A stretch of DNA of 64,000 bases, taken from the NCBI GenBank assembly GCA_036172245.1, contig JAYWIR010000077.1, forward strand, positions 124,001 through 188,000, read 5' to 3'. The notes beneath the pieces were generated by a model that was given only the letters and a program-made list of their open reading frames with translations, was not told the DNA's origin and searched no databases. Source of the stretch: Raillietiella orientalis (Eukaryota). The translations under genes were made by a program, and so were the position numbers. Below are positions 4,001 to 56,749 of this stretch, in pieces (within the stretch, counting starts at the first letter, position 1; every line of letters starts with the position of its first letter).

Positions 4001-6671
4001 ATGACCACTCCTTTTCTTTCACTCTATTCAGTCTGAATTTCACGTCTGCTTCCTTTGTCACTGCACCCCACCAACTCTAATAAGAATCCTTTACCCGAAC
4101 ACCAAAGTTTTGCTCCTTTATCCTCCAAATGTTCTTCATTCTTGGTCTGCTTCAACGTTTTCTGTGCTTCGCCTCACTACACTTAAATGACTTCAATGAA
4201 TCATAGGAGCATGAATCTCCAATGAATTTGATCGTTGGAGTCGAATGATGGTGTTGCCATCAGTACCAACTGATCAACTGAATCTCGAATCTCGACCAAA
4301 CATCGAGACGGCAAGAGACTTCAGAAAAATGAAGTGGAAGTAAAAAGTGCATGAAAATAATTGATTACAAGTTTCAAGAGTGGAAGTATGCGAACAGGGA
4401 AAAATTCCTACGAGGTTATGCGAAGCTTTAAGTGTTTAAGGAACTGAATGCAAAATCTGGATAGATGATGAATAGATGGATTTAGAGTGACTTGAAGTAC
4501 AGAGCTGAACCCTCTTCGAGACATCGCAAAATGGAGTCCGATTATGAACTATCAAGAGTTAGGTGTTTCCATCATACTTTAGAAACTGCATGCTGGAAAA
4601 CTGGAAGATAGAACATTCTCAAAGTTTTGCTGTTTTTAAAATTTCCCTTTGCAGCATGGAAAGTATTCTGGGGATGATGAACAGTTTTGTTCTGATTTCC
4701 GTGATCTGAGTACGGAGAAAAGGACCGTCACTAGATTCCAGAGGAAAGATGCTTCCTCAATAATGGGAGGACATTGAGAGCATTTTTATGACATTTTTGT
4801 AACATCTCAGATGAATGAATTCAATTTTCAATTTAGGGAAGCTTGATCAGGAACTGAGGAAAAAAATGCGCACCTCCAATTCGCTTTTCGACAAGAACGT
4901 TTGAAAGACTTGTTTTTTAAAAAAAAATGTTTTTAAAAAAAAAGAAGAGGTATTGGAGGAATTAAAAGCAAACCAGCTGGAAAAATTTTCGCAACTTATG
5001 TGTAAACTAACGATGATGGAGTCATGATGATGATTCAGCAATTTAGAATAGTTGGGAATTAGATAAGTGTATACAAAGTATTTAAAACATGAAACTGATC
5101 GTATAGAGAAAAAAAAAAATCCTCTTGAAAATAAATTCGATGCGATCCGTGGCACTAACGGAACTTCCATGTCAGTTTCGGTCACTCATTTTTCAATATT
5201 TTCTTCGTTTTTATTGAAGCAGCCCACACAACAGTCGAAGAAGTTCAAAAGTAACTAAGATACCAGCATTCATATTACAATATTGCTCAGTCATCGAAAG
5301 TAATGAAAATATTACATCCATTGATTTTTTGCATATGATCTACGAAATTTAAAAAATGAAGCTGATTTTTGATGAGTATCTCTTGAATTTATTAGAGGAT
5401 GAATTGCCATCAACAAAACATCCAAACCAGAAACAATCCAAATTAGAAACAGTCCTCGAATGACATATCGGGTAGATCTGAAAAATAGAACTGAAAAAAT
5501 GATGATCCCATTCTTCCCGCCTCACTCTTCGGAAAAAATATGTTCATATCCATATTCAAAGGCCAAATTCACAGACATCATCTACGATTCTAAAAGAAGC
5601 GTTCTTCAGCACAGTGGATTCGTTCAACCCACATCCAGGCAAAAGAGGGAGGAAATCGGGAAGATTAGGAGCACTGGTCGAACACCAAAGTTTTTCCAAG
5701 ACTTGCCATTTTCCTTCTATTTCGAAATACCATATTTTTGTGTGTAATAATGCAGCTCTATTCTATGGTTGTTATCGGCCATAAACTTGTCCATAATTTG
5801 TCGGCGTGAATATTGAAGAAGCAATCACTGCTAAATCGTTTGACTTGGCTGATTTTCATGGGTTGGTTTCATGAAAAAACGTTTCTGGAATTCTGCAAGT
5901 TGAAGCTAAGGTTTCCACAATCATAAGAGCATCTAGTCGAATTAGAAGAGTTAATGTCAAAACAGAAAGTGCTGCAAAAACACTGATCACAATAGTATTA
6001 CATTTAAACTCGATTCGAATTAGAACGAAGAGTTTGAGTATCAGATATTTTGACAGTTTCAGATACGAAGCCGTTTCGAGTCAGTCAATTCAAAGGCTCA
6101 AATTTGAGCAATCAGCTTTAGTAATTGAAATGTGAGGGTTTTTTTTCTGGATCATTCTTAGTTGTATCATGAAAGACCCTATTTGATCTTCTGAAGCACT
6201 TCTCAGACTCGTTGTGTGAAGTTGTTTCTCAGCCTTGAGAAATTTGAGAAAGCCTTTTTTGTTTGTTTTCTTTCTAGTGACTTTTAAACTCGTCAGGCTG
6301 AAGGATCATGAGATGCGAGACCAATGCAGATTTTCCGTGTGTTCTGAAAGCCAAGTGGATGTCTTGAAGTTCATGAATCTCCATTTTTCTTGAGCCATCA
6401 AGAGCCACGCCACCAAGGGTCAATTCGTCTATGCGTTTTTTCGTTCGATCCTAGCAGAAAGACGGAGAAGCCATTAAACATTAATGGGCAAAAAAGCTAT
6501 GTGACTGAACCCTAAGGCATGACCGCTCTAAGCAAAACGTAGCTTTGTATTTGTTACGGGACCTAAACTTCCATTATGGTTCCTTCAATGTGAAACATGA
6601 ATAGAAAAATAAGTGTTTGGCTCGAATGGATACCATGGATCAAAGAAAGAATACGTCAACACAAAATGCTT

Positions 6672-7010
6672 CGAGCGCGACCCGCGTCGGAGGCCGTGAG
6701 GTCTCCGCGCTAAGCGTCGCGGGTTCGAATACCTAGAAAATGGGCGTGGGTCCGAGTTCTCTCCCTTCCTGCAAGATGTATAACGCTGGTTGGCCCTATA
6801 TTCGGGTGCAGAGCGGGTAGCCGTTAAAACCGGAGGCCCCCGGTGAGTGGCCGGGACGATAGGGGAGTCCACCCTCCGGGGTCATGTGGAACTTGGGGAA
6901 TTTGGCGATGTTACTGTGAAAAGATGAAAGACGTGGCAAGGGGGAAGACCCTTTTAAAAGAAAAGAATACGTCATTTTTGGAAAAAGGTACTTTTAAAAA
7001 TAAAAAGGGG
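6672..7010 (+). mobile_element. tRNA-derived SINE, uninterrupted short copy
   Basis: A-box-like GCGACCCGCGTCGG and B box GGTTCGAATACC (6722-6733). The head matches 25611-25683 and the body (GCAAGAT..GCTGGTTGGCCCTATATTCGGGTGC..TGGCCGGGA) matches 32310-32440. A-rich 3' end. Confidence 0.7.
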
Positions 7011-13299: not shown

Positions 13300-14880
13300 T
13301 TGCTCGAGTTGAAAAATTTTGGAGTACACTCGTTTACCAAACATTTTTGGTTCTGTTTATAGAATTTGGCTCTTGGAATTTTTCTTCCTGTTCTCTGATT
13401 TAGAAAGGAAGCAGAGATAACAAAGAGCAACAACCTCAAAGAATTCCGCTGTTTATTTTCCGTCCTCTGGATTTCAAAACGAGTGCAGAAGTGGTGCCAA
13501 AGTGACTCTTCGTGTGTTAGATAGTTTTCCTTCCTTGGAAACAATAGGAGGGATCACTACAGGTAGAAAGTAAAGCAAAAATGGTTAAGGAAGCTGAAAG
13601 ATGCTCCCAAGACAAATGGATAAGATATACGTACCACCCAAATCTCTTCGTGGTTCCGAGCGCATCATAGTATGCCAGAGGGATGATCTTCAATTGAACG
13701 ATGGTAGCAGGATAGGATATTTTTCTACGTGGCAGTAGGGGCGGGAATTTCAAACCATCTCCATCAGGTGATTCTCCATTGGTTAGTGACTTGTGAAAAA
13801 CCACATAAGATGAGCAATCCTGAAGGAATAGAAGGTAGATCACAGTTAGAATGGTGCTTAGGAATGTTTCTCAAGAGGGATCACACGACTGTTACAGACA
13901 TATTACAGATCTACGCGTTGCACTTACCTCAATGATTTTGATGAAATCTTAGCAGCCCTGGGTTCAGTATTCTTAGGATCCACACACCCTTTTGCTTATC
14001 AAACTCCAGAAAGATAACCTTCATCTTCACATCATTCACATTCTGTGCAAGGTCTTTGGCTTTAATAAACAGCATTCTTAAATTCTCTTGCGAGTGGAGT
14101 CGAAGAATTGACTGCTTACGGAGCAATCTGTAGATTCATTCTGAGGCAGTTCCAAACAAAAACGAATACTTTTGGGCATAAAAGAGAAAGCAAAGCAACA
14201 CAGGTAGAAAATAGAGCAAAAAGAGCTGAGGAAGCTGAAAGATGCTCCCAAGACAAATGAATAAGGAGCCTTCGGTAAGAATCACATTTCGGACCTCCAG
14301 CACTGCTTGAGTTTCCAAGTGGAAAAGAATTCTCTATTTCAGGAGGGAGCAAAACCTTTCCGATATCTAACGCCGACTTTGGAAATGGAATTATTACATC
14401 ATATTTTTCATAGTGCTTCCATTGCACACCATTTGGCGGACTGATTTACTAAAATGAATTGCCTGTTTGTAGTAGTTGTGTTCTTTTATTCCCGAGAGTT
14501 TTTGCGAATGAAAGTTCTTGATTTGACATTGCCTTTCATTTTATCTCTGTGATTTATTTATTTATTTTTTTTACTTATTTTGAAGAGCTGCTTGTTTTTC
14601 ATTTTACCTTTACAAAAATGAAGGCAATCAGGAAAATGAAACACCAGCGTCGTGATGCCGATGAACTTACACGCAAGATTGAGTTGTGACGCTGTGTGGC
14701 TCACATGTTCGTGATCCAGAGCATCATGAGAAAAGTGTGAACACAACAAGGTGGTTGAGCCGAGCTTCTCATGGACCATCTTTCCTGTCGTGCGCCCACC
14801 TAAATCGCTTAGTGGAAGTCCAGCAAACTCGTCAACGGGGTGCGCCAACGCACTTAATCAGTATTTGACAAGCTCATGCT
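13300..14880 (-). pseudogene. ISL2EU-type (Harbinger-related) transposase remnant: THAP domain, HTH_Tnp_4, DDE_Tnp_4
   Basis: THAP-like FAGLP...TTLLCSHFSHD (~14830-14720) and HTH-like SQENLRMLFIK (~14090). DDE-like LQDCSSY..HKSLTNGESPDG..KF...PRRKISY (~13825-13710) and GVIPPIVSKEGKLSNTRRV after removing 13634-13557. Confidence 0.6.
13560..14265. repeat. Two 65-bp direct repeats (13560-13624 and 14201-14265), 58/65 identical
   Basis: Shared core AGGAAGCTGAAAGATGCTCCCAAGACAAATG, aligned by hand. Confidence 0.9.
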
Positions 14881-24200: not shown

Positions 24201-25610
24201 AGGTCGATAGCAACATTCTGGATAGGTTGAGAGTTTTGAATTTCACTCCAAAAAAACCAGACCTCTAAGTTTTTCATTCTCACTTAAGATAAGGATCTTA
24301 GACTCGAAAAAATCTTATATCTTTCTGTTTTCCATTCAAAGGATTCTTTGGGTCCCTGGACGTTAGAGTGATATGGATTTTTAAGAGCATACCACAATGT
24401 AGAAGGAAGATGCCTACAGTCACAATATCCATGTAAAATTTGATTTTATGGAACTAATGAGGAGAAACAAATCACTATTGGGTCAACGGGAAGGTCAGAT
24501 TTGCCTCTGCGGTACCTCCAAGGTGGATGTGTGGGTCTATTTGCCGAAAAAAATTATCTTTATTCCACCTGAACGAGAGCTCCTTTGATTCCTTATCTAA
24601 CGAAAGTCATGAGATTTGCAGTCATTTTTGTGTGTGTGTGTATCTCAACGGTGAACAGAAATGCAATTGGAGCATGGTATCCCATCTCCGAAATCTCGAA
24701 GATTAAGGAGTATCAAGACCATCCATCAAACGACGAAGAATTGATGACGTAAAGCGTAATCGGGCGATAGGGTAAGAAGAAGACGCAATCACTCCAACGC
24801 GTGGAGATCATGCAAAACGCTCTTGGCTACCACTGTGACCATCCAGGAATCCCTGCGACTCGGACTGTAAAGTCCGGGGATCCTCTGGAGACCCGGAAGA
24901 TGACCTAGGTTCTCATCTGTGGGATGGTCCGCAGTTTATTGACCCAACAGATATTTCTATTAAAGTGTATATTCGAGGTGATTACCTTAACCCAGCTCAG
25001 AAGAACTAACGAACCATCAGAGCTTTCGGCCTGATCTGCAGTCTAGTGGCTGGACACGAAAGGAAACGTTCTGCTGCTGGTCTTCCGCTTCCTTCTCTAC
25101 TTTCCGGTCTTTCCTGGACCCTGCTGCTGCATTCTCAAAAGGGAACCGGTAGCCCAGGAAGATGACCCGATTGTCGTTTAGAGCACCAGGTTACACCTCG
25201 GTTGAGTAAACTTTAGGAACGAGTGCGGGCTTGCTGGACACCAGCTTCCAGTGCCCACTTGCTGCTTCCTCGAGCCGTTCCGCCAAGGCGTTCTGCTTAC
25301 TTGTGCGAAAGCGAAGAATCTGCAAAAAGTTCAAGGAAAAAGAAAAAACTGTGCATTCGACCAGTTCTGAATCACAGTGAAATGACTTCATCTTCGCAAA
25401 CGTTTGTGCGAATGGCTTGGCGAGCATTAGTGAGAGTTTCAGTAATGGTTGGGATGCGCAAACCCAAGTGGATAGAGAGAAAACAGCAGGCAGATGGCTA
25501 TCCAATCGTCTTAGTGGATATTTACACTATTCCTCAGTGATAGACACAGAGGTAGAAGGAATCTCGTTGGAGTAGCAGCAACTTGATAACAAAATTAAAA
25601 AAAAAATCAG

Positions 25611-25697
25611 TCCGTAGCCCGCGTTGGAGGACATGTGGCTACGCTCTTCATGCGTGGCACCAAGCGTTGAGGGTTCGAATACCCGTAAAGGATCGAC
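25611..25697 (+). mobile_element. 5' tRNA-like head of a SINE interrupted by the Tx1-like LINE
   Basis: TCCGTAGCCCGCGTTGGAGG (A box) ... AAGCGTTGAGGGTTCGAATACC (B box 25672-25683), homologous to 6675-6733. Confidence 0.7.
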
Positions 25698-25778
25698 GGG
25701 CTTCGCGACGCTCCGCGAATGTCAACGAATGGTGCGTTCTTTTCAAATTCGTGTGGTACTTGTAGACATAAAAGCGTA

Positions 25779-27350
25779 ATGGCAGAAATGCCAAACATCT
25801 CTGCTAAGGAGGGCTGAGGTGATGCGAAGACTGCACCACTAGCCCCGATAGGGACGGAAGCTATCGCTTCCGAAGATCGAGGAGGTCCTGAGGATACAAG
25901 GACGTGGAGCCAATTGGTGTCGGCTGCCACGCTCGGTGCCCAGGCAGAAACGGAGGCTTATTTGGCCCAGAATTACCGGCCTGCTCTGCTCTACAAGGTG
26001 GACCGATTAGGCTTAGCGTCCGTTGCGCGTTCCTTCGCAACGCGAACATTGAGAAGGGAGACCTTGAAGGACTCTCTATGGTAAGAGGGGGTGAAGCGTT
26101 GAGCTGACTTGCAAAGAGTGAGCTCTCGTTCAGCGACTCTACCCCTTCCCACTCGTTCTACTGAATACCCCCATAACCATCGAAGGCAAGAGACTCTACC
26201 CTAGAACGGCGGACCACTCGGTAATGGTCCATCTACGAGGGTTGCGGCTGTACATGGACGAGCGCGAAGTCCTCCTCCAGCTTAAAGAATATGCGGCGGT
26301 CCACGTGTAGAGCAGAGCAGGCCGGTAATTCTAGGCAAGTCAAACTTATTCCCCGTATATGAGGGACTGTTGAGCAGCTTGGCTGTGGCAAGCGTGACCG
26401 TACATGAAGGGAAGCAGCTCCTCTACCGGGTGGAAATGATGGAAATCGGAGGACTTTGATCTCTAGTTCCCTGGGAAACCAACATTATGCAGCCGTTGTA
26501 ATACAACCGGGCATCTGGAGAGAAGACGTCCAGAAATTACTCGCCATGACTGCAGATGGAAGGGCCACATGAAGTTTGTGTGCCCAAACTCGTCAGCGAG
26601 TATCAAGCGCAAAGCCAGAGAAGATACGGCTTGCGGAAAAGAACGGAAGCAAAGGGAAGAAGGAAAGATGCCCACCGCAGTCAAACCAGAACAAACTTTC
26701 AAAAGAGGGGAAGAAATGACCGATGAAGCGGGATGGCAAGTGGAGATATTAAAAAAGGAAAGGAAACAACCTCCCGAAACGAAAAAAGTGGAGAGAACTG
26801 GAAGCAATCGCTAAGCATCCGCAGGACTGCAAGGCGACTCCTCAACAGATTAGCACGATAAAGGCAGCGATTGAAAACGTGAACGCAGTCACGGGAAGCT
26901 CGATCGACGAACCGATCGATAGCAACGAAAGTCGATCGATAACGCTACTGTCATCTCTTCGGATAAGGTGGTGACGCCAGAGCCTTTGAAAGTAAAGACC
27001 TGAAAAAAAAAAGACAGTGAGACGTTCCGCCGAAGGCAGCCTCAGTATGGCTTCCGACTCCGACCTGGATAATGTAAGCACCAGAGGAGGAGTGGAAGCA
27101 ACGGAAACCACCTCAAAGAGGCCCAAGGCCCCAAGGAAGAATGCATCCCCCAAGGCAAAGGAGGAATCAGTCCCAGAAGCCGAGAGGATGCAGGTTGGTT
27201 CCCGGGAGTCATCCCCGGAAAGGATCTTCTGCTCCGGAAGAAGAACAAATGTGAGGGAGAAGGAGTAGAAGAGAGGGGTTATCCCTATACCTTCCCCATC
27301 ACTGGCGATCGTCCCGCCTAAGCAACAGGTAGGAACCATAGAACCGATAT
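25779..27350 (+). pseudogene. LINE ORF1 (gag-like, two CCHC zinc knuckles), frameshifted
   Basis: FPGKPTLCSRCNTTGHLERRRP and HDCRWKGHMKFVCP (~26467-26586), followed by a Lys/Glu/Ser-rich low-complexity tail. Confidence 0.75.
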
Positions 27351-29138
27351 ACCAACAGTAACAAGTGCGCTTGGCTCTGCCGGCGACTACATGTAGTCTG
27401 CTGGAATGTCAACGGGCTGAGCGACGGCGTCAGGAGACAGGACTCAACTGCCTAAGAAGCGGCCGTTCGACATGGTACTTCTGCAAGAGATCCCCATGAT
27501 CTCTGCGGAAGAAATCCAGGAAATGGAATCGATTGCGGACGGCAAGCTGCATTGGTGTTGCGACTCGATGCACTCGTGCGAGGTCGCCTTCTTGCTGAAA
27601 CCAACCGTGAAAAGCACGGTACGTGACGTTCAGTTCGACGATGAAGGCCGGGTAGGACAACTTGTTTTCAAGTGGTCCGAATGGATTGACCTCGTTGTGA
27701 CGAACATATACGCACCGAGCGACTCCAACATGTGAAAGGTGAGGAACCGGATTCTTCGAAGCCCCAAAACGCCGTGGTCGGTGGAAGCAGGCGCGCGGAG
27801 AGCCCACCTAATAGTGAGAGATTTCAACAGACCCTTGCTTCAGGTAGGGGTAGAGGCCAGTTCAACCTGGTTAACGAGGGATGCGCAGCAATGCAACTTG
27901 TTGACTGGGGTCACCGGCATAGAGGGCAGCATCGATCACGTCTTCCCTCGACGACCACCTACGCTTGCGGGTCTGTTATCGTGAAAAGGGGCGAATGACG
28001 TCAGACTACGACCGGATTGAGCTGGAATTACTCCCACGAAGGAAAGGTTAGCCTTCCAACGCGTGGCCCCTACCAAGGTATTGGCTTCATCTCCCGGAGG
28101 CTGCTGAACACCTCCGTAACTTCCGGCGAGATGTCATTGTGCAGCAACTCGATGGCTGGGACGAGATGAAGCTCTCAGTTCGAGAGATCTGCACGACCTT
28201 CCTTACAGACTGCCTCCCTGCCGGGTTTGGTGTTGCAAACCCGGCAGAGAGGCAGTCTGGGCTGGTGAGAGAATGCTCAATGAGCACTCGTGTCTCCAAG
28301 CTCGGTGCTTGGCCAAAAAAAGCCAGACGTTCTTCGTCTGGCTGAGATGAAAGCCACGGTTGAGCGACAAGCCTAGCAGTCCGGGGCGACCAGATTAATG
28401 GACAACCAGGACCAAGAAAGCTCGTCCCCGGCAGAAATATGGCGCATCGTGCGCCAATTTTACTCCTGTACACGAGAGCACTACCGGAACTCGACTTCGC
28501 GCAGCAGTTGCTGCCTGAGGGCGTTCCCGCGATCGGGGAAGAGTCGCGAACACTCTTGAGCGAGCCTCCGCAGTTTTCACGGCAGGGGATTCGTTATGGG
28601 AAAGCTCAAAAGTAGGAAAGCAGCAGGGGAGGACGGCCTGCCGGCTGAATTTTATCAGTATTTCGCGGCAGAGCTGATCCCACTAGTGCATCGAATATGC
28701 ACGCTGATTCAGGAGACAGGTGAGGTGCCCGCCTCCTTTCTATCAGCAAGAGTATGTCTCCTTCTAAAGGGAAAAATGTCTTGCCGTTCAGAAAAGTTAA
28801 GGGGCATGAGGCACGGGAGGAAACCTCCACAACATAAGCAACTGGCGTCCAATTACAGTAATCAACATGGACTTCAAGCTGTTCACGAAGCTATGGATTG
28901 AACGCCTGGGGCGGTTAGCGGAAACATTCATCAGCCCGGGGAAGAAATACAATGTTCCTGGACGAAGTGTGGAAACCAATCTGTTCCTGGTCAGCTCCTG
29001 GCTTTAGTTGCTGCAAAGAGTTGAGCCAGTTGGCCAAAGAGGTACTGAATTCCGAGATGGCCAGGGATCGGGAGGTCACGTTTAGTCAAAGGCGCAGGGA
29101 ACCCCTGCGGTAGCAATCGATTTGCGAAAGGCATTCGA

Positions 29139-30061
29139 TTTTCACCCGGGTCTTCGGGACGTTTATTTAGAAAACAAACTTTAACACGCTCTGTGGCTGG
29201 ACCAGTGATCCAGCCACGCCCAAAGAAACAACACAGAGCCTGCCGGGTCACCGGTTCACAGACCGGTACGGTCCACCACGGCAGCAGGGGGGACAAACAA
29301 AAAACTAAGCAAAAAGAAAAGAAAACGTGGGAGGGTCCGGAAAGGGATCACTGTTGCTGCTGGGGCCGTTGCATCCTTCGCAGGATGCCGGCAAGCTCTC
29401 TCTGTATTCCTGGATCCAGGTGGGGCCATCGCGACGCTCTCTCCAAAAATTCAGTGGCGTGCTGGATGGCACCCTTATCGCGAGGTCCTCCCATTGCCTT
29501 GCTCCAAGCGGCGACGATCCCACGAAGGCAGCAGCACAGGGCTGCTAACGAGGCCGCAGGCCGAAGAGCGTCGGACACGAAGAGGGCTTTAACAGCGTCC
29601 TTGGGGTTTCCTCAGGGGATTCCGATGGCCGCGGCAAAGCATAGCCAAAGGGACCGAAGGGCAACACAATCCACAAGGAGGTGGGAGAGGGACTCCCGTT
29701 CCCCACACCTAACGCAATTGGGGTTCACTGCTCCCCAGGTCCAGCGGTGTCGGCGGGCGTTGCAGGGGAGTCCCCAGTGCTGCAACAGGAGCGCCGACTC
29801 CTGCCATTTCAAGGAGAGGGTGCAGGTGTTCATGAGCACCGGGGGCCACTTCAGATGTTTCACTGGAACATTGAACAGCGCGCCCCAGCGTAAAAGTCAA
29901 TGGGGAGGTGTACTCGGGATCGCAGCGTGAGTTAGCTGGCCCGTCTTCCACTCTCCTATTTTCTTCTCCCCTTCGGAAATTTTTATGTTAACCTCCCACT
30001 TCGCCGCAACATCGCTGTCCGAATCTTCCCTTAGGAGGGCCAGTGCAGCAGCGAGGGGGGT
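29139..30061 (-). mobile_element. Insert A: 5'-truncated related Tx1-like LINE (ORF2 C-terminus plus 3' UTR), antisense within the RT
   Basis: Encodes LPCNARRHRWTWGAVNPNCVRCGERESLSHLLVDC (zf-RVT) and ends AATAAA..CCCGGGTGAAAA. Flanked by CGAAAGGCATTCGA (29125-29138) and CGAAAAGCATTCGA (30062-30075). Confidence 0.88.
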
Positions 30062-30075
30062 CGAAAAGCATTCGA

Positions 30076-30172
30076 TTTTCACCCGGGTTTCTCCGGGGCG
30101 ATTATTATTATAACAAACTTTAACAAAGACGTGCTGTGGCTGGACCAGCAAACCAGCATCACGACGCAGTTT
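30076..30172 (-). mobile_element. Insert B: ~97-bp 3' terminus of the same LINE family, antisense at the same site
   Basis: Homologous to 29139-29225 (TTTTCACCCGGG..AACAAACTTTAACA..CTGTGGCTGGACCAG). Right flank AAAAACCATTCCA (30173-30185) is a decayed target copy, after which the RT frame resumes as CADQELLLEHLECPGFPNVF. Confidence 0.8.
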
Positions 30173-32304
30173 AAAAACCATTCCACTGCGCCGACCAGGA
30201 GCTCCTTTTGGAACATCTGGAATGCCCGGGATTCCCGAATGTTTTCCTAGCCTACCTGCGCTCCTGCCGGCGCAAGGATTCTATTAGATTATATTATGAT
30301 AGATCATTAATATTTTTTTCAGCGGAAGATACGTGCACAGCGTGTCGGTGCGGCATGGCATAAGGCAAGGAGACAGCCTGAGCCCGTTGCTCTTCGGCAT
30401 CTACTTCGAGTTGATGCTGAGAGCGTACGGGATAACTTTTTCTGCCCTTCCCAGGTCGTGCTCCGGAATGTCTGCCGTGTCTGCCTATGCCGACGATCTG
30501 CTCATGTCACCCATGTCAGCTCCGGCAGCATCACTCGAGGAATTCCTCGAGCTGATCAGCCAGGGAGCTGGCGTATAAACAGGGCGAAGTCGATTGGGCT
30601 TCCCGTTGTTGCGATGCGGGCTGGGCAACCGGACTGGTTCCGCTTAAGGATCCCCACGGTCAGGTGCTTTAAGTACCTGGGATTCCCGTTGGGGCACTTT
30701 TGTGCAGCAGAAGGCTGGTCCGGTTGCCTCCAAAAGGCAGAATCGGCTCTCAGACGATTTCTGAATGACAAGTTTCTCTTACTGGAACGGGTTGTTCTGT
30801 GGAACATGTTTGTTGCTCCCCTCCTCTGACCCCTGCTTTTTGTTTGTCCTCGGCCCGGTGATGTAAGAAAGCGGACCGAGGACCTCCTGCAAATAGCTTT
30901 CTGGGGAACGCAGAGGTCCCAGGTCGACTTAAAGGACTTGTGAGCGCCGCGTCTGGACGCCGGACTCGGTGTCTTGACGCTGGAGAGGATGAAGCGTCAG
31001 TTCCAGTGTAGAAGATTAGCCCTAGCGGGGAGGTTCTGGACCACACATCGGTGCGTCCCAGCCAGAGTCCTGGCGAAGAGAGCAGCCGGTGTCGAGGGAC
31101 TCGGTACGTTCCTCGTGCATGGCCACCAAGAGTTTCTCCGATGCGGGTACCAACTCCGACAAATGTTTGTCTTGGTCCAGAAGAAAGAATGGATTTCATG
31201 CCGCCCCGCCAACTGTAGTGCCTGCAAACAGGAAACCGTTCCGGCGTGGGCGAAATTAAACGGCACGAGCCTGGAGCCATCGCGACGCCTGTGATTCTCG
31301 AGCTACGCTCGCTGCAGGAAATCATGGACTGCTCAAGGAAGACCATCTGGGCGCGGAACACCACACTTGCGGTTACGCTGGACACCGTGCGACAAATGGA
31401 AATGGTGATTTACCGCAAGATGGGAAGTATCTTGAGAGATCGCGGGGAAAAAGAAGCTGAGATGCTGGACGGCGCGTCACCTGGCTGGAGCATGTACCCC
31501 TGCCGCCCTCCCCAAAGAAATTCGTCGCTGCGGAACTCCTGAACATTTTTCCTGAAGAAGCAGAGATACTTCCAGTGTTTGTGAACAGCTCCACGCTTCT
31601 TCTGAAGTGGCAGGACTCGGCATTGCAGTTGTTGCACTGGGGATATCCCATGCAACGCACGAGTCCACCACTGAACAAGTGGGAGTGTAGTTCCTGACAT
31701 CCAACAGATGCGAGGAACAGGAAACCTTTCTGCACCAGTTCTTGGTTTGTATTGCTCTCCTGAGTGTCTGGGAGCGCTTCGCTGCAGCCCTCCCACTCCC
31801 GATGGATAACGGTGCCTCTTCGACTTCATCCACTCAATGTTGCCTGCAGCTTGCCTGCAGCTCTGTGCTGTCTTTGTGGAGTTGTAGCGGCGAGCAGCCT
31901 CGCCGAAAGAGACCAGTCAAATGATGAGGTCCTCGCAATCGTCTGCTCCTTCATGAGGAAGGAGACAAGATGGCCACATTGCCATCAAAAGCAGGAAGTT
32001 GCCAACACCCTCCAGAGGATGCTGAGGACGTCAGGAAGAAATCTGTGATCCCTTCCCTTTCCTCCCAAACATTTCTAAACTGAACTTTAGTATTCTTTTT
32101 CCCGTTTTTGTTTACCCCTTCCACCACTCCTCCTGTGCGGACCTCATTGGGGAGTTGCTCGCGAGAAGCAGCGCCTCCGAGGCATCTCCCTTCGTAGTGG
32201 TGATGTGAAGCCATCGCGAAGGAAAACATTTTTATATTTTATGTAACAGTTTTCATTGTAAATATTTTTTTTACAATAAATGCCCCGGTATGATAGGGTG
32301 AAAA

Positions 32305-33095
32305 TGAACGATCAACTCCAGAGAAATGGGTGCGTCGTGGGTTTCTCGAGTTCATCGCAAGATAATGCTGGTTGACCCATATTCGGGTGCGGCACTGATA
32401 AAAGCTTCAAAATGGACGCCCCCGAAAAATGGCCGGGATCGGAAGTTGATCCTTCGTGGTCCTTCCAGTGATCAGAATTAAGGAGTCGGTTCCCTTCGGT
32501 TATGAAGATGGAGTCGTCTTCCCTCCCTCGGGGGGACCACACCATCTCGTACCATGGGGATCGGTGGATTGATACCTCTCCAGAGTGTGAAAAAGTGAGC
32601 TGTTCCCTTCGGGAGCGACTCTTCAGAGAAAATTTGAAGCGTTCCTTCGGGATTCTCTTCAGAGAAGTAATAAGGAGCGGTTTCCTTGCGGGTACCCTCC
32701 GGAGAAGAAATTCCAAGAGTGCTGATCCTTTCTAGATTCCATTCGGAGAAGAAATAATGAGGCGGTCCCCTCCGGGGGTCCCTTTGGAGAGAATAAGAAA
32801 GAGGTTCTTTTCGGAGTTCCCCGAATACAACCAGGGTGGAGGGTTCCCTCCAAAGCGTGAGAAGAACGGACTCTTCTCTGGGGTCTTTCCTGGATTCATG
32901 GGGTGGTCCCCTCCTGGGGGTACCCCCCAACTTGAGGAGTCACTATCGCACCCTCGGGTGGAGTGGAACAGTGTTTAAGAGCTGTGTGAGCCCACAGGAG
33001 GACGGTTCTTGGGTACTTAGGGAACCAAAAAAAAAGAAACCCGAAAAAAAAAAAGCTGGAAGGAAAAGAGCGAAAAAGAAAAGAACTCAAAAGAG
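32305..33095 (+). mobile_element. 3' remainder of the interrupted SINE, with internal minisatellite and A-rich tail
   Basis: 32310-32440 matches 6735-6858. 32937-32968 (GAGTCAC..CACCCTC.GG..GTGGAAC) matches 6865-6892. A-rich tail at 33027-33092. Confidence 0.65.
32625..32895. repeat. Degenerate ~36-44-bp tandem repeat (about 5-7 units)
   Basis: Units begin (A/G)GAGAA near 32625, 32661, 32701, 32745 and 32786, each with consensus-like GAGAAGAAATAA.GAG.CGGT.CC.T.CGGG.TCCCT. Confidence 0.65.
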
Positions 33096-40200: not shown

Positions 40201-40975
40201 GTGCAATCACTGGGCTACGAATCGAATTCACCGAGGTGGATTTTAATCCTTTCACTTGTCAAGCCTCTCATGCATGAAAATTACCTTTAGCCTGAAGAAA
40301 AGCACCCTTCATAGATCCGTATTCCTGAAGGATTCTTCTTCATGCTTATCCTTCGCGTAACTCTTCACCAAATGCTCCTCCTTGCTGACGTTTCATTCCA
40401 AACAAACCCGGGATTACGTGCAAGATCTTGCAACGACTCTGTAAAGCTCATTCTCCCTGATCGGGAGCATCCTCTGAAAACGCCATTCCACTGTGATGAA
40501 TCTCCACTGCAGCTAATGTCCGCCTTCCAAACTCTGGCATCAACGCTCCATAATTCTAGAGAGGACTCGCGATCTGGTTGATAGTCATTGAGCACGCGAT
40601 CTTGAACTCGGAGTTTCCTCCTTCCGCTCGGCTCGCCATCTCCTCGGATGTACTGCTGCACTCGGAAGTTTCCTCCTCTCTGTGGCTCCCCCCCTCACCT
40701 TCGGATGCTCCGCAGCTTCCCTGCGGCGTTCACATGGAAAAGAAGCTGAGGACGCGCTGCAATTCCAAGCGCCCGGAGTCCCTCGCAGCAACAATGGAGG
40801 CGTTGCTCCGAGTTGGATCGATAGTCACGTGAGAGGCGGCAGCTTTGGCTGCCAAGCAAAACGAGCCGCAAGGTGGGCGGCTCGCAACCGAAGTCTGCGG
40901 AGCTCCCCTGCGATCACCTCCCCTACATCGTAGGGCGCTCTCCCGCCGGTGAAGAGAAAGTAGCCACAAGGCACC

Positions 40976-43102
40976 ATGGGGAATGAGAAGCCTCAGCGAA
41001 GCAACCCTTGTCTGTGCGTGACTTCCTCAGAAAGCTCATCCACCCCTGGATCCACGTCCGTGTCCTGCTCCTCTGGGCAAACAACGAGTGATCAGTACAC
41101 GAATTCGACAGTCTCCGGTTGCTTTGCCTGCAGCAGGAAGAAGATTTGCGACCTGCAGCCGCAGTTCATGAGTTCTCCCGTTGGGTGCAGACGGGGATTG
41201 GAGGACTCCCGGTCTTCGAGCAGCTCTGGACAACAGCGGCAAGCATCGAACGGGTCTCAGCGATACTACAAAGGAAGAAAACGTCCAGGAGAGACGACCT
41301 CGTCTAACGCCGAGGGCTGGAGCGCCGGTGATCTCCCGGACAGCGGTCCCTGCGGACAGCGACATACAAGGGGCTCGCGAGTCGGCGCCAAAAGTTGTCT
41401 CTCCCTTCCCCTGGCAAAGCCCTTTGGAATCGAAGACGACAGTGGAGAACGAAGTCCCCTGAGGCCGCGCGCGATGGTCCCACGTCTTCTGGGTCGTTGC
41501 CGTCGCCCGAAGAAGAAGAAACCCATCTCAGAGCTAATGCTATCGCCTCTTCTGGAGGAGAGCAGCGGCGATTCACTGCTGAGGCGAGAGAGCGTCAAAC
41601 CGTTCCCTGCCCTAGATCCGCGCGGAGAGGACGTAGGGCTCTTCTTCGAGACGCCTTCGGAATCGTCCTGTCCGGAGGGTCAAACCGAACTCCGTAGGAA
41701 TGCAGAGGAAGCCAAAAAGAGCCTCTCAGACGGAGAGCACCACCGTGGAGGAGCCGCAGAAGGGAGAAGACGGAGCGCTGCTTCAGCAGAGCGGCAGAGA
41801 CCAGAGCGCGCGGGCCCTGCAGGATGCGTTCGGAAGGAACCCCGGGGTAGCAGGCGGATGGGAAACTTCAGAAGGCGCCGAAGGCATTTGGGTGGGGAAT
41901 GCAAGATTTGTTTTCCTCGGAACTCTCTTGCTTCCTCGAGCTCTTGTTGTCTGACTCCCGGCACGGTTCCCCACCCTTGCTCCGGAAAGAGGCGCTGCTC
42001 TCGCGACGACTCCTTCAGAAGGGCGATGAATGCCTTCATCGAGGAGTTCTCCCAGAAGTTCAAAGAGAATCTGGACCTGCGCCTGGGGAGCAATGGTCTG
42101 GTACGGTCGTCCTGCTGCCAGGGACGCTGCTGCTGCCCAAGGCGCGCTCGCTCCGATCCGAGGAGGCTGGAGTCGAGGAGCAGCGACACGACCCAGGCGG
42201 CGCCTCCCTTTAATAGAGGTCTTCTTTCCTATGCCCCTCCGGTTCGGCGCTATCCCCTGCAAAACTGGGCGCGGATGGAGTGTTGCAACCCTAATATGAA
42301 GCCCCGCGAGTTGCTGCGAATTTTCCCTCCTTCCTTCAAGGGACGTGGGCAGAACAAGGTCTCCTCCTCGCCTTCCTCCTGCGGGAAGCCTCCTTCTCCT
42401 CCTCCACCGTCCTGCTCGCCCCAGAGACCCCTTCCTGGTGCCATGAAGATCTCCTGCAGGCATCCCTGTGGACGAGGAGCAGCGCCGCAGTTCCTTATCA
42501 GCCAGTGCGGCAGCGAGACAGTGCCGCCGCCACTGGACTGCCGGAGAAAGGTGTTGGAGGAGGAGAGCGCGTGTCCTCGCTGCTGTTGCTGCTGCCCCCA
42601 CCGCTCTCGTCCTCGCCGCCGCTGCTGCTGCTGTTGCTGCTCTGAAGGGAAGGTGGAGGGCCGCGGTGCGGCCGCCATCTGTTCCAGGAAGATCCGGTGC
42701 GACAAGCCGAAAGCATGTCCCACGGAGCGCGTCAGGGGATCGGCACCCTCACCTTTCTCGACCTACTACCTAACTCACGTCTGTCCATTGCATAGCGTGT
42801 ACTGCGAGGGCAAGGACGGCAGACCTCTCACGTGGTGGTGTCAGCAGTCCCCCTCCTGCCCTCCGCCTCCGTGCTGTTGCTGCTGCAGCCGCAGCCGCCG
42901 CGACTCTGCCTGCGCAGAGGAGCACCCGCATGCCTTCAGCTACCGATCTCATAATTACAGTCACCCCAGAACCCAATGGAAGTCGAGGAAGGGAAGGAAG
43001 GAGAGAATGGGAAGAAGAGCGGTGAGACGGAAGGGGGAAAGGGGTGTGGTTCGAGGAAGCTTGAGGACAGAATTCGTCTATCCTCCTGTAGTTCCCGGCT
43101 GA
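40976..43102 (+). CDS. Intronless 708-aa Cys/Arg/Pro/Ser-rich hypothetical protein
   Basis: 2127-bp uninterrupted ORF with strong Kozak context GGCACCATGG. Contains poly-Cys and poly-Pro runs. No family recognised. Confidence 0.6.
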   Translation: MGNEKPQRSNPCLCVTSSESSSTPGSTSVSCSSGQTTSDQYTNSTVSGCFACSRKKICDLQPQFMSSPVGCRRGLEDSRSSSSSGQQRQASNGSQRYYKGRKRPGETTSSNAEGWSAGDLPDSGPCGQRHTRGSRVGAKSCLSLPLAKPFGIEDDSGERSPLRPRAMVPRLLGRCRRPKKKKPISELMLSPLLEESSGDSLLRRESVKPFPALDPRGEDVGLFFETPSESSCPEGQTELRRNAEEAKKSLSDGEHHRGGAAEGRRRSAASAERQRPERAGPAGCVRKEPRGSRRMGNFRRRRRHLGGECKICFPRNSLASSSSCCLTPGTVPHPCSGKRRCSRDDSFRRAMNAFIEEFSQKFKENLDLRLGSNGLVRSSCCQGRCCCPRRARSDPRRLESRSSDTTQAAPPFNRGLLSYAPPVRRYPLQNWARMECCNPNMKPRELLRIFPPSFKGRGQNKVSSSPSSCGKPPSPPPPSCSPQRPLPGAMKISCRHPCGRGAAPQFLISQCGSETVPPPLDCRRKVLEEESACPRCCCCCPHRSRPRRRCCCCCCSEGKVEGRGAAAICSRKIRCDKPKACPTERVRGSAPSPFSTYYLTHVCPLHSVYCEGKDGRPLTWWCQQSPSCPPPPCCCCCSRSRRDSACAEEHPHAFSYRSHNYSHPRTQWKSRKGRKERMGRRAVRRKGERGVVRGSLRTEFVYPPVVPG

Positions 43103-54858: not shown

Positions 54859-55983
54859 TCAACGAAAAGCAAGCAGGAAGAATTCTTCCTGCTTACCCTT
54901 TGTCGACTCTTGACATCTTCCCTGTTTTCTCTCTTGCTCTTCTAAACCAAAGCAGACCCTTACCTTTTGAACGGAGCCTTCCGGTGTGCACATCTGGTAA
55001 TTATCTACAGCATTCGGCACTACTTCGACCTCTGCAGATTCATCTGCTGCATTATTCGAGCTCATCTTTTGAATGTTGGACTGAAGATCGCAAATCTTGA
55101 GATAGAGGATCTCTTTAACCTCCCTGATGTTGCTGGGAGAGATCTCGTTGGTTATACATTTCAGAGTGTTTATCAGCTCCTCCAAGCAGTTCGAGGCTTC
55201 CCGTATGACCCTCCCTCTGTTTTTCAGGATCCGGTTGAGATCGCCTATCTCTTGCTTGCGGATGCAGCTCTCCTCCTGGTACGTGGCATCGAGCTTCTGT
55301 ATCAGGCTATCCTTCTTCCTGTTTTCTTCTATCAGCTCGGTCATGGCTGCATATTTCTGGTCATTGATCCGCTTCAATGCCTCCACTTCCGCCTTGAGGT
55401 CGACAAGCTGCTGGTTCAGCAACTTGTTTGCCAGGAGTTGCTTCTCCCCTACTTCGACCTGCTCCTGGAGCTCCAGGATGTTCTGCTCCTTCAGCTGAAT
55501 CTGCTTCAGAAGGCAGCAGTAGTTGGTGGACAAGTCTTTGTTCTCCTTCTGCACCCTAGAGTAGACGTAGCGGCTCTGTTCCAGTTCATTGAGTAAGCTG
55601 CGCACCACATATTCTGGGGTCGCTTCGTCCTCTCCGACCTTGCTGATAATGTGCTGCGTCTCCGGCATCACCACGCTCTTCATTGTTTCTTCCAGAGTCC
55701 TTCTCAGGTCCTGATTTTTCTCCATGAGGTCTTCCAACTTCTTCTTCAACTGCTCCTCTGTTTTAAAGTTGTCCGTCTTTTCATAATCTTCTCCAAGTTT
55801 GTTCCTTTTAAATTCTTCCATGATTTGATCCATTTTGTTCCCGATGACTTCAAGAATGCCTTGGGTTTCTTTATCACCTTCCGTATATCTCTTGCCCTTC
55901 AACTCTGCCTTCAGCGCCTGGAGTTCTTCTTTCTGTGCCTCTACAGTGTCTTCGAGCCCTTGGATGTTCTCTTCTCTCTGCAA
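54859..55983 (-). CDS. 374-aa coiled-coil protein (probable exon or frameshifted gene)
   Basis: Uninterrupted E/K/L/Q-rich heptad-patterned ORF. It starts at TTG within TTTATTGCAG, a possible splice acceptor. There is an in-frame stop at 56001-55999 and an out-of-frame ATG at 56006. Confidence 0.7.
   Translation of the reverse strand: MQREENIQGLEDTVEAQKEELQALKAELKGKRYTEGDKETQGILEVIGNKMDQIMEEFKRNKLGEDYEKTDNFKTEEQLKKKLEDLMEKNQDLRRTLEETMKSVVMPETQHIISKVGEDEATPEYVVRSLLNELEQSRYVYSRVQKENKDLSTNYCCLLKQIQLKEQNILELQEQVEVGEKQLLANKLLNQQLVDLKAEVEALKRINDQKYAAMTELIEENRKKDSLIQKLDATYQEESCIRKQEIGDLNRILKNRGRVIREASNCLEELINTLKCITNEISPSNIREVKEILYLKICDLQSNIQKMSSNNAADESAEVEVVPNAVDNYQMCTPEGSVQKVRVCFGLEEQERKQGRCQESTKGKQEEFFLLAFR
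54871..54894. repeat. Perfect 24-bp palindrome
   Basis: AAGCAGGAAGAATTCTTCCTGCTT, with imperfect pairing extending about 13 bp further each side. Confidence 0.9.
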
Positions 55984-56749
55984 TAAACGAGTGATTTCTT
56001 ATCCATAGATCTAATTCCCAGATTTTAAATCCCTTTCCCCTGCCCCCTCTTTGCGCCTACGTCCTTCACGTTTCCGAAAATGTGATTCAAAGTGGTGATT
56101 TGTACCAGTTGCACAGTTTCACTGGTGAAATTCTGAAATTGATTTGATCAAATTCCTTCTATTTCATTTGTTTCCGATTCTTGAATTCCCTACCGTGTTT
56201 ATCGAATTCTAAAATCCGTTTTCTTCGTCCATTTTATCCATTTGTCATGTCATTTTGTATAAAGCAGCAAAATATTCCGTAAATTAAGGCAAAATCCCCG
56301 TTCCCTTTGCGCAGGTTCATTTAGAATCTTTTGCAGTTCTCGCTAAACACTACCCATGTTCTGGATAACCACGTGCATGACATAGGCAAGGTAAAGGTGA
56401 ACGCTCTCGCACATCTATTTTGTACAGCCACACCGATCCGAAAAAGCTTTGACAGCCTCAGACCCTTTCCAGTTAGCTGGATTGAGTTCCTGGATCTCTA
56501 TGCATATATGAATTCTCTTGTTCCGTTTGGAATTTCAGGAAGGCAGGCACACAGAATCACACATTTTGTTCTTGCTGCATGTTTTTTTCTAGGAAAGATA
56601 ATCCGTCATCGGATTGATGCCGAAGCAACTTCCGTAACGCAGAAGATTTGCAGTCTTGTAGATCGCAACTCTTGGTGACACTAACCTTTCATTCCAACTG
56701 GTTTGTTATGTGCAGCTTTCGGACCGTACCGTCCTTCCTCCTAGCTGCA

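Follow-up and report, generated by a model that had tools for sequence, protein, structure and literature searches.

The question raised by this locus is whether one target specificity, or more than one, placed a transposable element within a second and that one within a third. In a 64,000-nucleotide stretch of the Raillietiella orientalis genome (assembly GCA_036172245.1, contig JAYWIR010000077.1, positions 124,001 to 188,000; hereafter the window), a short interspersed element (SINE) with a tRNA-like head is split by a long interspersed element (LINE) of a family termed B, whose reverse transcriptase (RT) codons are in turn interrupted twice by antisense 3' ends of a second LINE family, A. 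A preliminary description of the window, whose quoted sequences are present where it placed them, had proposed that a single specificity for the RNA polymerase III (Pol III) B box and T-loop (TTCGAAT) covers both nestings, with GCATTCGA in the RT codons acting as a mimic. Comparison with copies elsewhere in the 210-Mb assembly of 491 contigs indicates that the locus very probably arose by ordinary target-primed reverse transcription in three layers, the work of two sister families of L1-group LINEs whose target specificities differ. A tRNA-like SINE would have been in place when family B inserted full length, in sense orientation, at ACCCG|TAAAGGATCGAC (vertical bar, insertion point). The younger family A would then have followed with two antisense insertions at GCAG|TCGAATGC, which corresponds to the K-A-F-D-C codons of the B RT on the opposite strand, each insertion regenerating its site as a target-site duplication (TSD) of about 14 nt so that copies could stack. 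Identity among copies rises from the SINE (69-84%) through B (77-83%) to A (85-97%), and the age order that this implies fits the nesting. For the two stacked A inserts, the target matrix derived below points to insert 2 as the later, yet the TSD pair of insert 2 is the more diverged.

The claim that the two flanking pieces are halves of one SINE was confirmed for 25617-25697 and the sequence from 32305 onward. Once joined, the halves aligned end to end with 30 genomic copies, and a search with the copy at 6665-6900 found 39 other places at 69-84% identity (best 40 of 368 candidates). The element is short, non-coding, interspersed and present in many copies. Its head, with an A-box-like motif and a B box, leads into the insertion-site stretch, after which come another B-box-like motif and a long body rich in hairpins. 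Its length is about 0.85 kb and its end lies near 33,050-33,090, not at 32445 as previously described, for 18 of 28 matching copies align onto 32938-33093. The family consensus at the insertion point (30 loci and the joined window halves) is TTCGAATAC(T/C)CG-(C/T)AA(A/G)(G/A)ATCGAC-GCC-GAGA. This alignment fixes the duplication, formerly called ambiguous, as 25686-25697 and 32305-32316, and rules out the decayed repeat starting at TCGAATACC that had been offered as an alternative. The apparent ambiguity arose because the copy at 6672, taken to be uninterrupted, lacks about 16 nt spanning exactly the target of family B. The B box and a T-arm-like hairpin are conserved in most of the 30 copies, and with the A-box-like motif they are what the proposed tRNA derivation draws on. 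The minimum free energy fold of the head is not a cloverleaf, ARAGORN found no tRNA gene in the window, and Rfam returned a single chance-level miRNA match there, outside the nested locus. Since neither program recognises the head, a tRNA origin is suggested by its sequence features only. No tRNA gene was the target of a LINE in any locus read.

Family B cuts the SINE at ACCCG|TAAAGGA and leaves a 12-nt TSD. The split is site-specific, as the preliminary description held, but its position is just beyond the T-arm, 11 nt on the 3' side of the B-box TCGAA, and not at the B box. A search with the B 3' end gave matches at 77-83% identity (best 40 of 346 candidates), and the flanks of 30 fetched 3' ends were mostly TAAAG- or CAAAG-like, with TCGAAT in 0/30. 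The SINE body resumes after the TSD at 8 of these 30 ends including the window copy, or 7/29 without it. Copies of B outside SINEs also have TSDs beginning TAAAG, CAAAG or a near match to these, and the motif therefore belongs to the cut made by B, not to the B box. Within SINEs, B occurs only in variants with CCG|TAAAGGA, a site found in a minority of SINE copies, and the genome contains 22 exact target sites (12 holding B, 9 empty, 1 unclear). Truncated B copies at one SINE nucleotide, between head and body, have 11 lengths (444, 541, 677, 707, 852, 901, 936, 1176, 1201, 1603 and 3224 nt). The ORF1 region of the window copy also contains a 40-nt inverted duplicate (25965-26005 and 26297-26336, 93% over 41 nt). 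The pattern used found only the forward arm in two other full-length B copies and neither arm in a third, and the second arm looks specific to the window copy.

Complete copies of B are distributed differently from its 3' ends. Fourteen copies match the B 5' end (the window copy and 13 others), two of them lacking the first bases. The remaining 12 comprise 10 that follow a SINE head, one with SINE body downstream and one in tandem behind another B, so that intact 5' ends lie at the SINE site in 11/12 against 7/29 for 3' ends (p ~1e-4). In several copies the 5' end opens with target-like (GCC)CGTAAAGGACGGAC, which is doubled after the true TSD in three, and this leader differs from the 3' TSD in 2/2 variant copies with both ends seen. 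The B RNA probably starts with a short target-like leader that would favour complete 5' joining at SINE sites. The preliminary description had suggested that the A and B boxes upstream could give the LINE a Pol III promoter. Pol III terminates at runs of T, and B contains 22 runs of T4 or longer, the first 43 nt into the LINE, and T5 or longer in the last 120 nt of 30/30 3' ends, so that Pol III is unlikely to drive the whole LINE. A weaker form survives because full-length B copies lie almost always in SINE sites and start with target-like sequence: the SINE head would serve as the family-B promoter, with B co-transcribed from its target as in R2 and SINE targeting thereby self-reinforcing. 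The T runs count against this form too, SINE body follows in 8/8 full-length copies whose 3' end was seen (it was not reached in four others), none shows the head moved elsewhere, no doubled SINE head was seen, and homology-assisted 5' joining alone explains the bias. It is accordingly improbable. The same 8/8 count, with four 3' ends unreached, leads us to reject transport of the SINE head to new locations by full-length B.

On the minus strand, both nested inserts terminate in GGGTGAAAA, directly abutting TCGAATGC. That they abut TCGAAT-type sequence was borne out, and the junction is sequence-specific. The first 30 of 166 flank-free A ends, defined by an exact terminal pattern, were all followed by TC(G/A), in 27 cases TCGA, and TC(G/A) followed 28 ends among 30 loci from a search with insert 2 (85-93% identity, best 40 of 112 candidates). 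Eighteen of the 30 flank-free ends are KAFD-type, 14 with the host RT visible and four by a KAFD-type TSD only. In a wider set of 93 cross-checkable ends, 66 are KAFD-type (35 by an 8-mer alone) and 27 lie elsewhere. Inserts that have a TSD, and host RT to either side, come in no fewer than 16 lengths (87-2971 nt), counting once the duplicate loci L032/L033/L127, L156/L157 and L051/L060. The A tail is a fixed A4 in 30/30. Insertion by both families is precise, recurrent and independent, with near-constant TSDs. An extra GCATTCGAC at 25353-25360, 250 nt 5' of the SINE head, is uninterrupted and has no evident RT context.

Away from KAFD, family A uses a short motif, with the consensus GSMS|TCGAR over 30 off-target sites (-4 G 24, -1 S 28, +1 T 28, +2 C 30, +3 G 26, +4 A 28) and TSDs of 14-16 nt in 23/30. 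The corresponding matrix gives about 13.9 bits for KAFD-C sites (n=9) and 7.4 for B boxes (n=32), compared with a mean of 3.5 for random TCGA and 8.2 for the off-target sites themselves (leave-one-out). The B box loses score mainly at -1 (T) and -2 (G). The off-target sites are not mainly in these LINE families, since 26/30 match no other fetched locus, and their flanks are mostly GC-richer than the window.

The hosts of family A are diverse. A tree built from the 330 nt preceding KAFD spreads 28 hosts over several supported clades and groups none of them with the three A reference copies (93-97% identical among themselves); the hosts share 59-76% identity with A's own RT stretch. That A mainly hits its own family can be set aside, although long A copies are rare and the test has low power. 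Family B is itself a host: of nine copies with KAFD seen, four have a confirmed A end there and one more is probably interrupted there. TCGA has been lost (TCAA or TCGG) in three of the four B copies unhit at KAFD (L233, L235 and L239; not L236), probably by CpG decay. Stacking of A on earlier A inserts at a regenerated KAFD site was seen in the window, L049 and L138. At five further loci (L128, L158, L164, L168, L177) an A 3' end and a KAFD-type TSD are followed by a shared sequence, GGACGTGTTTTCTCGGTGC, which is probably the 5' end of a full-length element, that is, a tandem stack at a regenerated site. Junctions of A with KAFD are clustered and favour contig ends. The outermost 150 kb of contigs contain 28 of 73, where 6.2 would be expected, and for 38 of 100 another junction lies no more than 100 kb away, against a random mean of 15.7. 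Dense islands of KAFD sites and A junctions were noted at C5:2.32-2.57 Mb, C13:2.45-2.52 Mb, C11:4.63-4.64 Mb and many contig ends, and these LINE islands are possibly centromeric or subtelomeric clusters. A search listed no RNA runs that contain a long A copy, which has no bearing on expression.

These observations bear directly on the idea of a single B-box specificity. The B box and antisense KAFD do share TCGAA, B boxes score above random TCGA in the A matrix, and the B insertion lies only 11 nt from a B box. The supply of targets is comparable, with 592 SINE B boxes (exact 14-nt matches counted over both strands; control 0) and 816 KAFD-C sites that match exactly (control 6), while the junctions are not, 211 A junctions having a KAFD-type flank and 9 a B-box-like one. 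Read individually, four of those nine are mutated KAFD sites and not one is the B box of a SINE or tRNA, nor did any of the 30 rebuilt empty off-target sites match the SINE. The predicted enrichment of A insertions at B boxes was therefore absent. Family B, for its part, cuts at TAAAG away from SINEs too and is confined within them to CCG|TAAAGGA variants. The gap in score between KAFD and the B box argues against GCATTCGA as a B-box mimic, and the expectation that active members avoid it through synonymous codons also failed, since A's own RT retains it in 3/3 long copies. One specificity for both nestings is thus extremely improbable, and the TCGAA common to the two sites is a coincidence of two specificities in one nest. 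It is hardly more credible that one SINE-LINE or LINE-in-LINE unit was amplified, with the recurrence inherited and not targeted. A few loci are indeed duplicates, L051/L060 have a host flank in common, and full-length B copies, almost all of them in SINEs, share the 5' variant GGACGGAC. The many A and truncated B lengths each have their own TSD, however, the A hosts span several supported RT clades, nine SINE targets are empty, and differing 5' breakpoints occur at the same nucleotide in unrelated hosts.

A further alternative agrees with the favoured anatomy and parts from it only over an adaptive origin of the preference. An endonuclease motif that is short and loose (TCGA-like for A, TAAAG for B), combined with purifying selection or chromatin bias, would leave KAFD and the SINE as merely the best matches in repeat islands that tolerate insertions, with no evolved aim at RT genes. 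The off-target consensus GCAS|TCGAR is already antisense of F-D-C codons, junctions cluster and favour contig ends, and off-target flanks are mostly GC-rich relative to the window. Against this, the short motif predicts a KAFD share of about 3% (window composition as background) where 60-70% is observed, which rules it out as the sole cause of that share. LINE copies also contain many other TCGA sites, yet insertions focus on one nucleotide, and the off-target sites are not mainly in these families. We regard this explanation as unlikely, though it deserves to be taken seriously.

Under the favoured reading of two sister families with separate specificities, each family's motif (A, GSMS|TCGAR; B, |TAAAG) is presumably set by its apurinic endonuclease-like (APE) domain, as general knowledge of APE-type LINEs and PMC4494074 suggest; the latter describes target choice as mainly set by the endonuclease. 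The upstream preference of A (-4 to -1) points to protein, because RNA pairing cannot produce it. A putative second layer would take the KAFD share from about 3% to 60-70%. Read-through LINE RNA may pair with the nicked target primer, an idea consistent with the fixed A4 tail and with a primer whose last base is A; longer protein contacts may lie beyond the resolution of 30 sites; or A may be targeted to, or survive in, LINE islands, the junctions being clustered and near contig ends. Pairing, acting alone or together with such islands, seems most likely. Several observations weigh against this account. AATAAA about 25 nt before the A end suggests polyadenylation and counters read-through pairing. 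The share that the short motif alone would give KAFD, about 3%, falls far short of the one seen. Roughly 30-40% of A ends, and roughly 70% of B ends, lie away from the target, so the specificity amounts to a strong preference and is not absolute. Survival bias (retention in repeat islands and purging elsewhere) is inseparable from targeting, given the clustering and the contig-end excess, and some loci are duplicates (L032/L033/L127, L156/L157 and probably L051/L060).

The assignment of both families to the L1 group (L1/Tx1) of non-LTR (long terminal repeat) retrotransposons is supported by sequence comparison. The RT fragment of A matched Pfam RVT_1 (E 1.9e-22), and against solved structures the best match was human L1 ORF2 (E ~1e-40), with R2 at 5e-18 (1e-18 or weaker). 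Database relatives of the A RT have about 30% identity and are mostly APE plus RT proteins, many with zf-RVT and mostly unnamed. Both the decayed B element and the beginning of the longest A copy show motifs that we take to be APE-like (WNVNGL, LQE, NIYAP, DFN, SDHRP). Pfam gave no match for four fragments of the outer LINE (B) and two other window open reading frames (ORFs), and a sister-family fragment gave a weak match to PF03372 (E 1.9e-4, below cut-off). Truncation at the 5' end, TSDs, an A-ended 3' terminus and a C-terminal CCHC motif are all present in these LINEs. Insert 1 has 59% nucleotide identity with the 3' part of its host LINE over 657 columns, and its protein matches the long A copies; at TSD copy 3 the host RT picks up again as C-A-D-Q-E-L-L-L-E-H-L. 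The features of the locus are collected in Table 1.

Table 1. Features of the nested locus and of a second SINE copy, numbered from the first nucleotide of the window (UTR, untranslated region).
Feature	Position	Strand	Remarks
Second SINE copy, 3'-shortened	6675-6900	+	~16-nt deletion covering the family-B target site
SINE head, tRNA-like, 5' part	25617-25685	+	Aligned with 30 genomic copies
B box GGTTCGAATAC	25672-25682	+	In SINE head, beside A-box-like motif and T-arm-like hairpin
Left TSD of family-B insertion, TAAAGGATCGAC	25686-25697	+	Site and TSD recur at other B-in-SINE loci
Family B, decayed full-length L1-group LINE	25698-32304	+	Six-frame reading; ~5,560 nt minus nested inserts; 5' to 3': ORF1 remnants, decayed zinc knuckle near 26490, APE-like motifs from ~27400, RT, Cys/His motif near 31700 (C-terminal), T-rich 3' UTR, terminal hairpin and A4
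RT codons A-I-D-L-R-K-A-F-D of family B	29113-29138	+	Family-A target
Family-A TSD copy 1	29125-29138	+	Inside RT motif codons of B
Family-A insert 1, antisense, 5'-truncated LINE 3' end	29139-30061	-	923 nt; ORF2 C-terminus with CCHC motif, 3' UTR, hairpin, A4
Family-A TSD copy 2	30062-30075	-	13/14 identical to copy 1
Family-A insert 2, 3' tip stacked on same KAFD site	30076-30171	-	96 nt
Family-A TSD copy 3	30172-30185	-	10/14 identical to copy 2
Right TSD of family-B insertion	32305-32316	+	9/12 identical to left TSD
Split SINE body and 3' part	32317-33090	+	Second B-box-like motif, repeated CCCTTCGGG hairpins, A-rich end; end approximate

Elsewhere in the window, the only Pfam matches among 66 other ORFs were three below the cut-off. 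Two open frames had no Pfam match: one of 712 codons, rich in Cys, Pro and Ser (40964-43102, plus strand), and one of 379 codons that reads like a coiled coil (54859-55998, minus strand). A 66-nt direct repeat (13559-13624 and 14200-14265) is 89% identical, its copies 641 nt apart.

Known target-specific LINEs aim at rRNA and snRNA genes, microsatellites, telomeres and some DNA or LTR transposons. Among the Tx1-clade LINEs presented in PMC4494074, Tx1L lies in Tx1D, Tx1-Mar in Mariner-N4_AMi and Tx1-9_AMi in Harbinger, while Tx1-8_Crp and Tx1-4_AMi target LTR retrotransposons. Families A and B resemble these in that they belong to the L1 group, are probably of the APE type and favour one site within a different repeat, with tandem copies around the TSD and with independence evident from 5'-truncated copies. 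Both exceed the share used there to define target preference, more than 20% of flanks in one repeat (A, 18/30; B, 7/29 without the window copy). They differ from the examples given there in their targets, a tRNA-like SINE for B and the antisense RT KAFD codons of sister LINEs for A. The likeness to the Tx1 clade is one of structure and target behaviour, and the assignment made here is to the L1 group (L1/Tx1) as a whole. The clustering of A-KAFD junctions recalls Zepp and ZeppL of green algae, which are described as L1-group LINEs inserting into LINE copies to form clusters of mostly 5'-truncated 3' ends (PMC8226300, PMC3446292). According to these accounts, however, Zepp targets its own family, with one cluster per chromosome, whereas A enters several other lineages, always antisense at one coding motif, and many of its sites are dispersed. 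Pairing of read-through RNA with the target has been reported for R2Ol (PMC6530143) and, as cited in PMC7265360, for R1Bm. Like R2Ol, R1Bm and SART1, the elements here have a fixed 3' junction without variable poly(A) and target-like sequence at their ends, and could act likewise; the targets reported for those elements are rDNA or telomeres and experimentally shown, whereas pairing here would be an extrapolation. Family B lands beside a Pol III-type internal promoter, as do the tRNA-gene-associated Dada DNA transposons, Dewa and TRE5-A (PMC3706591), but unlike those described there its site is a SINE-specific sequence 3' of the T-arm that is also used off the SINE. A literature search of limited coverage (titles and abstract starts; the supplements of PMC4494074 may bear on the point) returned no account of a LINE that aims at a SINE or at another LINE's RT motif.

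Other LINEs appear to share this habit. The fetched loci, which were chosen around A, B and the SINE and are not a random sample, yielded 167 distinct hairpin ends. These include further groups each with its own fixed flank, smaller groups too, and 50 singletons. A third LINE family, ending GGGTGTCAA, is antisense at one SINE-body site (window ~32397) in eight loci (L070, L094, L153, L154, L211, L221, L228, L233). A family ending GATAAA/ACAAA lies in sense orientation at the endonuclease GDFN codons of sister LINEs (window ~27821; L236, L237, L122), and one ending GGGTGACAAA was placed by eye, antisense, at one site resembling the linker between endonuclease (EN) and RT (LLDD..EHSA; L043, L234, L236). 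A wider interpretation is that sister L1-group LINEs, with one common 3' hairpin, have radiated by dividing fixed sites among each other's conserved sequences. Family A would destroy the RT of at least six sister lineages through antisense KAFD, the others using GDFN, the EN-RT linker and two fixed sites of the SINE, one taken by B in sense and one by the third family in antisense. Its specificity would have evolved on the competitors' most conserved motif and been reinforced by pairing of read-through RNA with the target, and it would build Zepp-like, possibly centromeric or subtelomeric, LINE islands. Taken jointly, these propositions are tentative, nearly as plausible as they are doubtful.

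The idea of tRNA mimicry, which would have been the stranger had it been true, does not hold. For annotators, RT genes broken at KAFD in this genome represent insertion and not decay. A LINE aiming at the conserved coding motif of other LINEs, together with its SINE-aiming sisters, would provide a natural series of closely related APE endonucleases that differ in specificity (GCAG|TCGAA versus CCG|TAAAG). This brings two questions within reach of testing: by what route APE-type elements acquire or change their site specificity, and whether insertion into one another is a form of competition among transposons.

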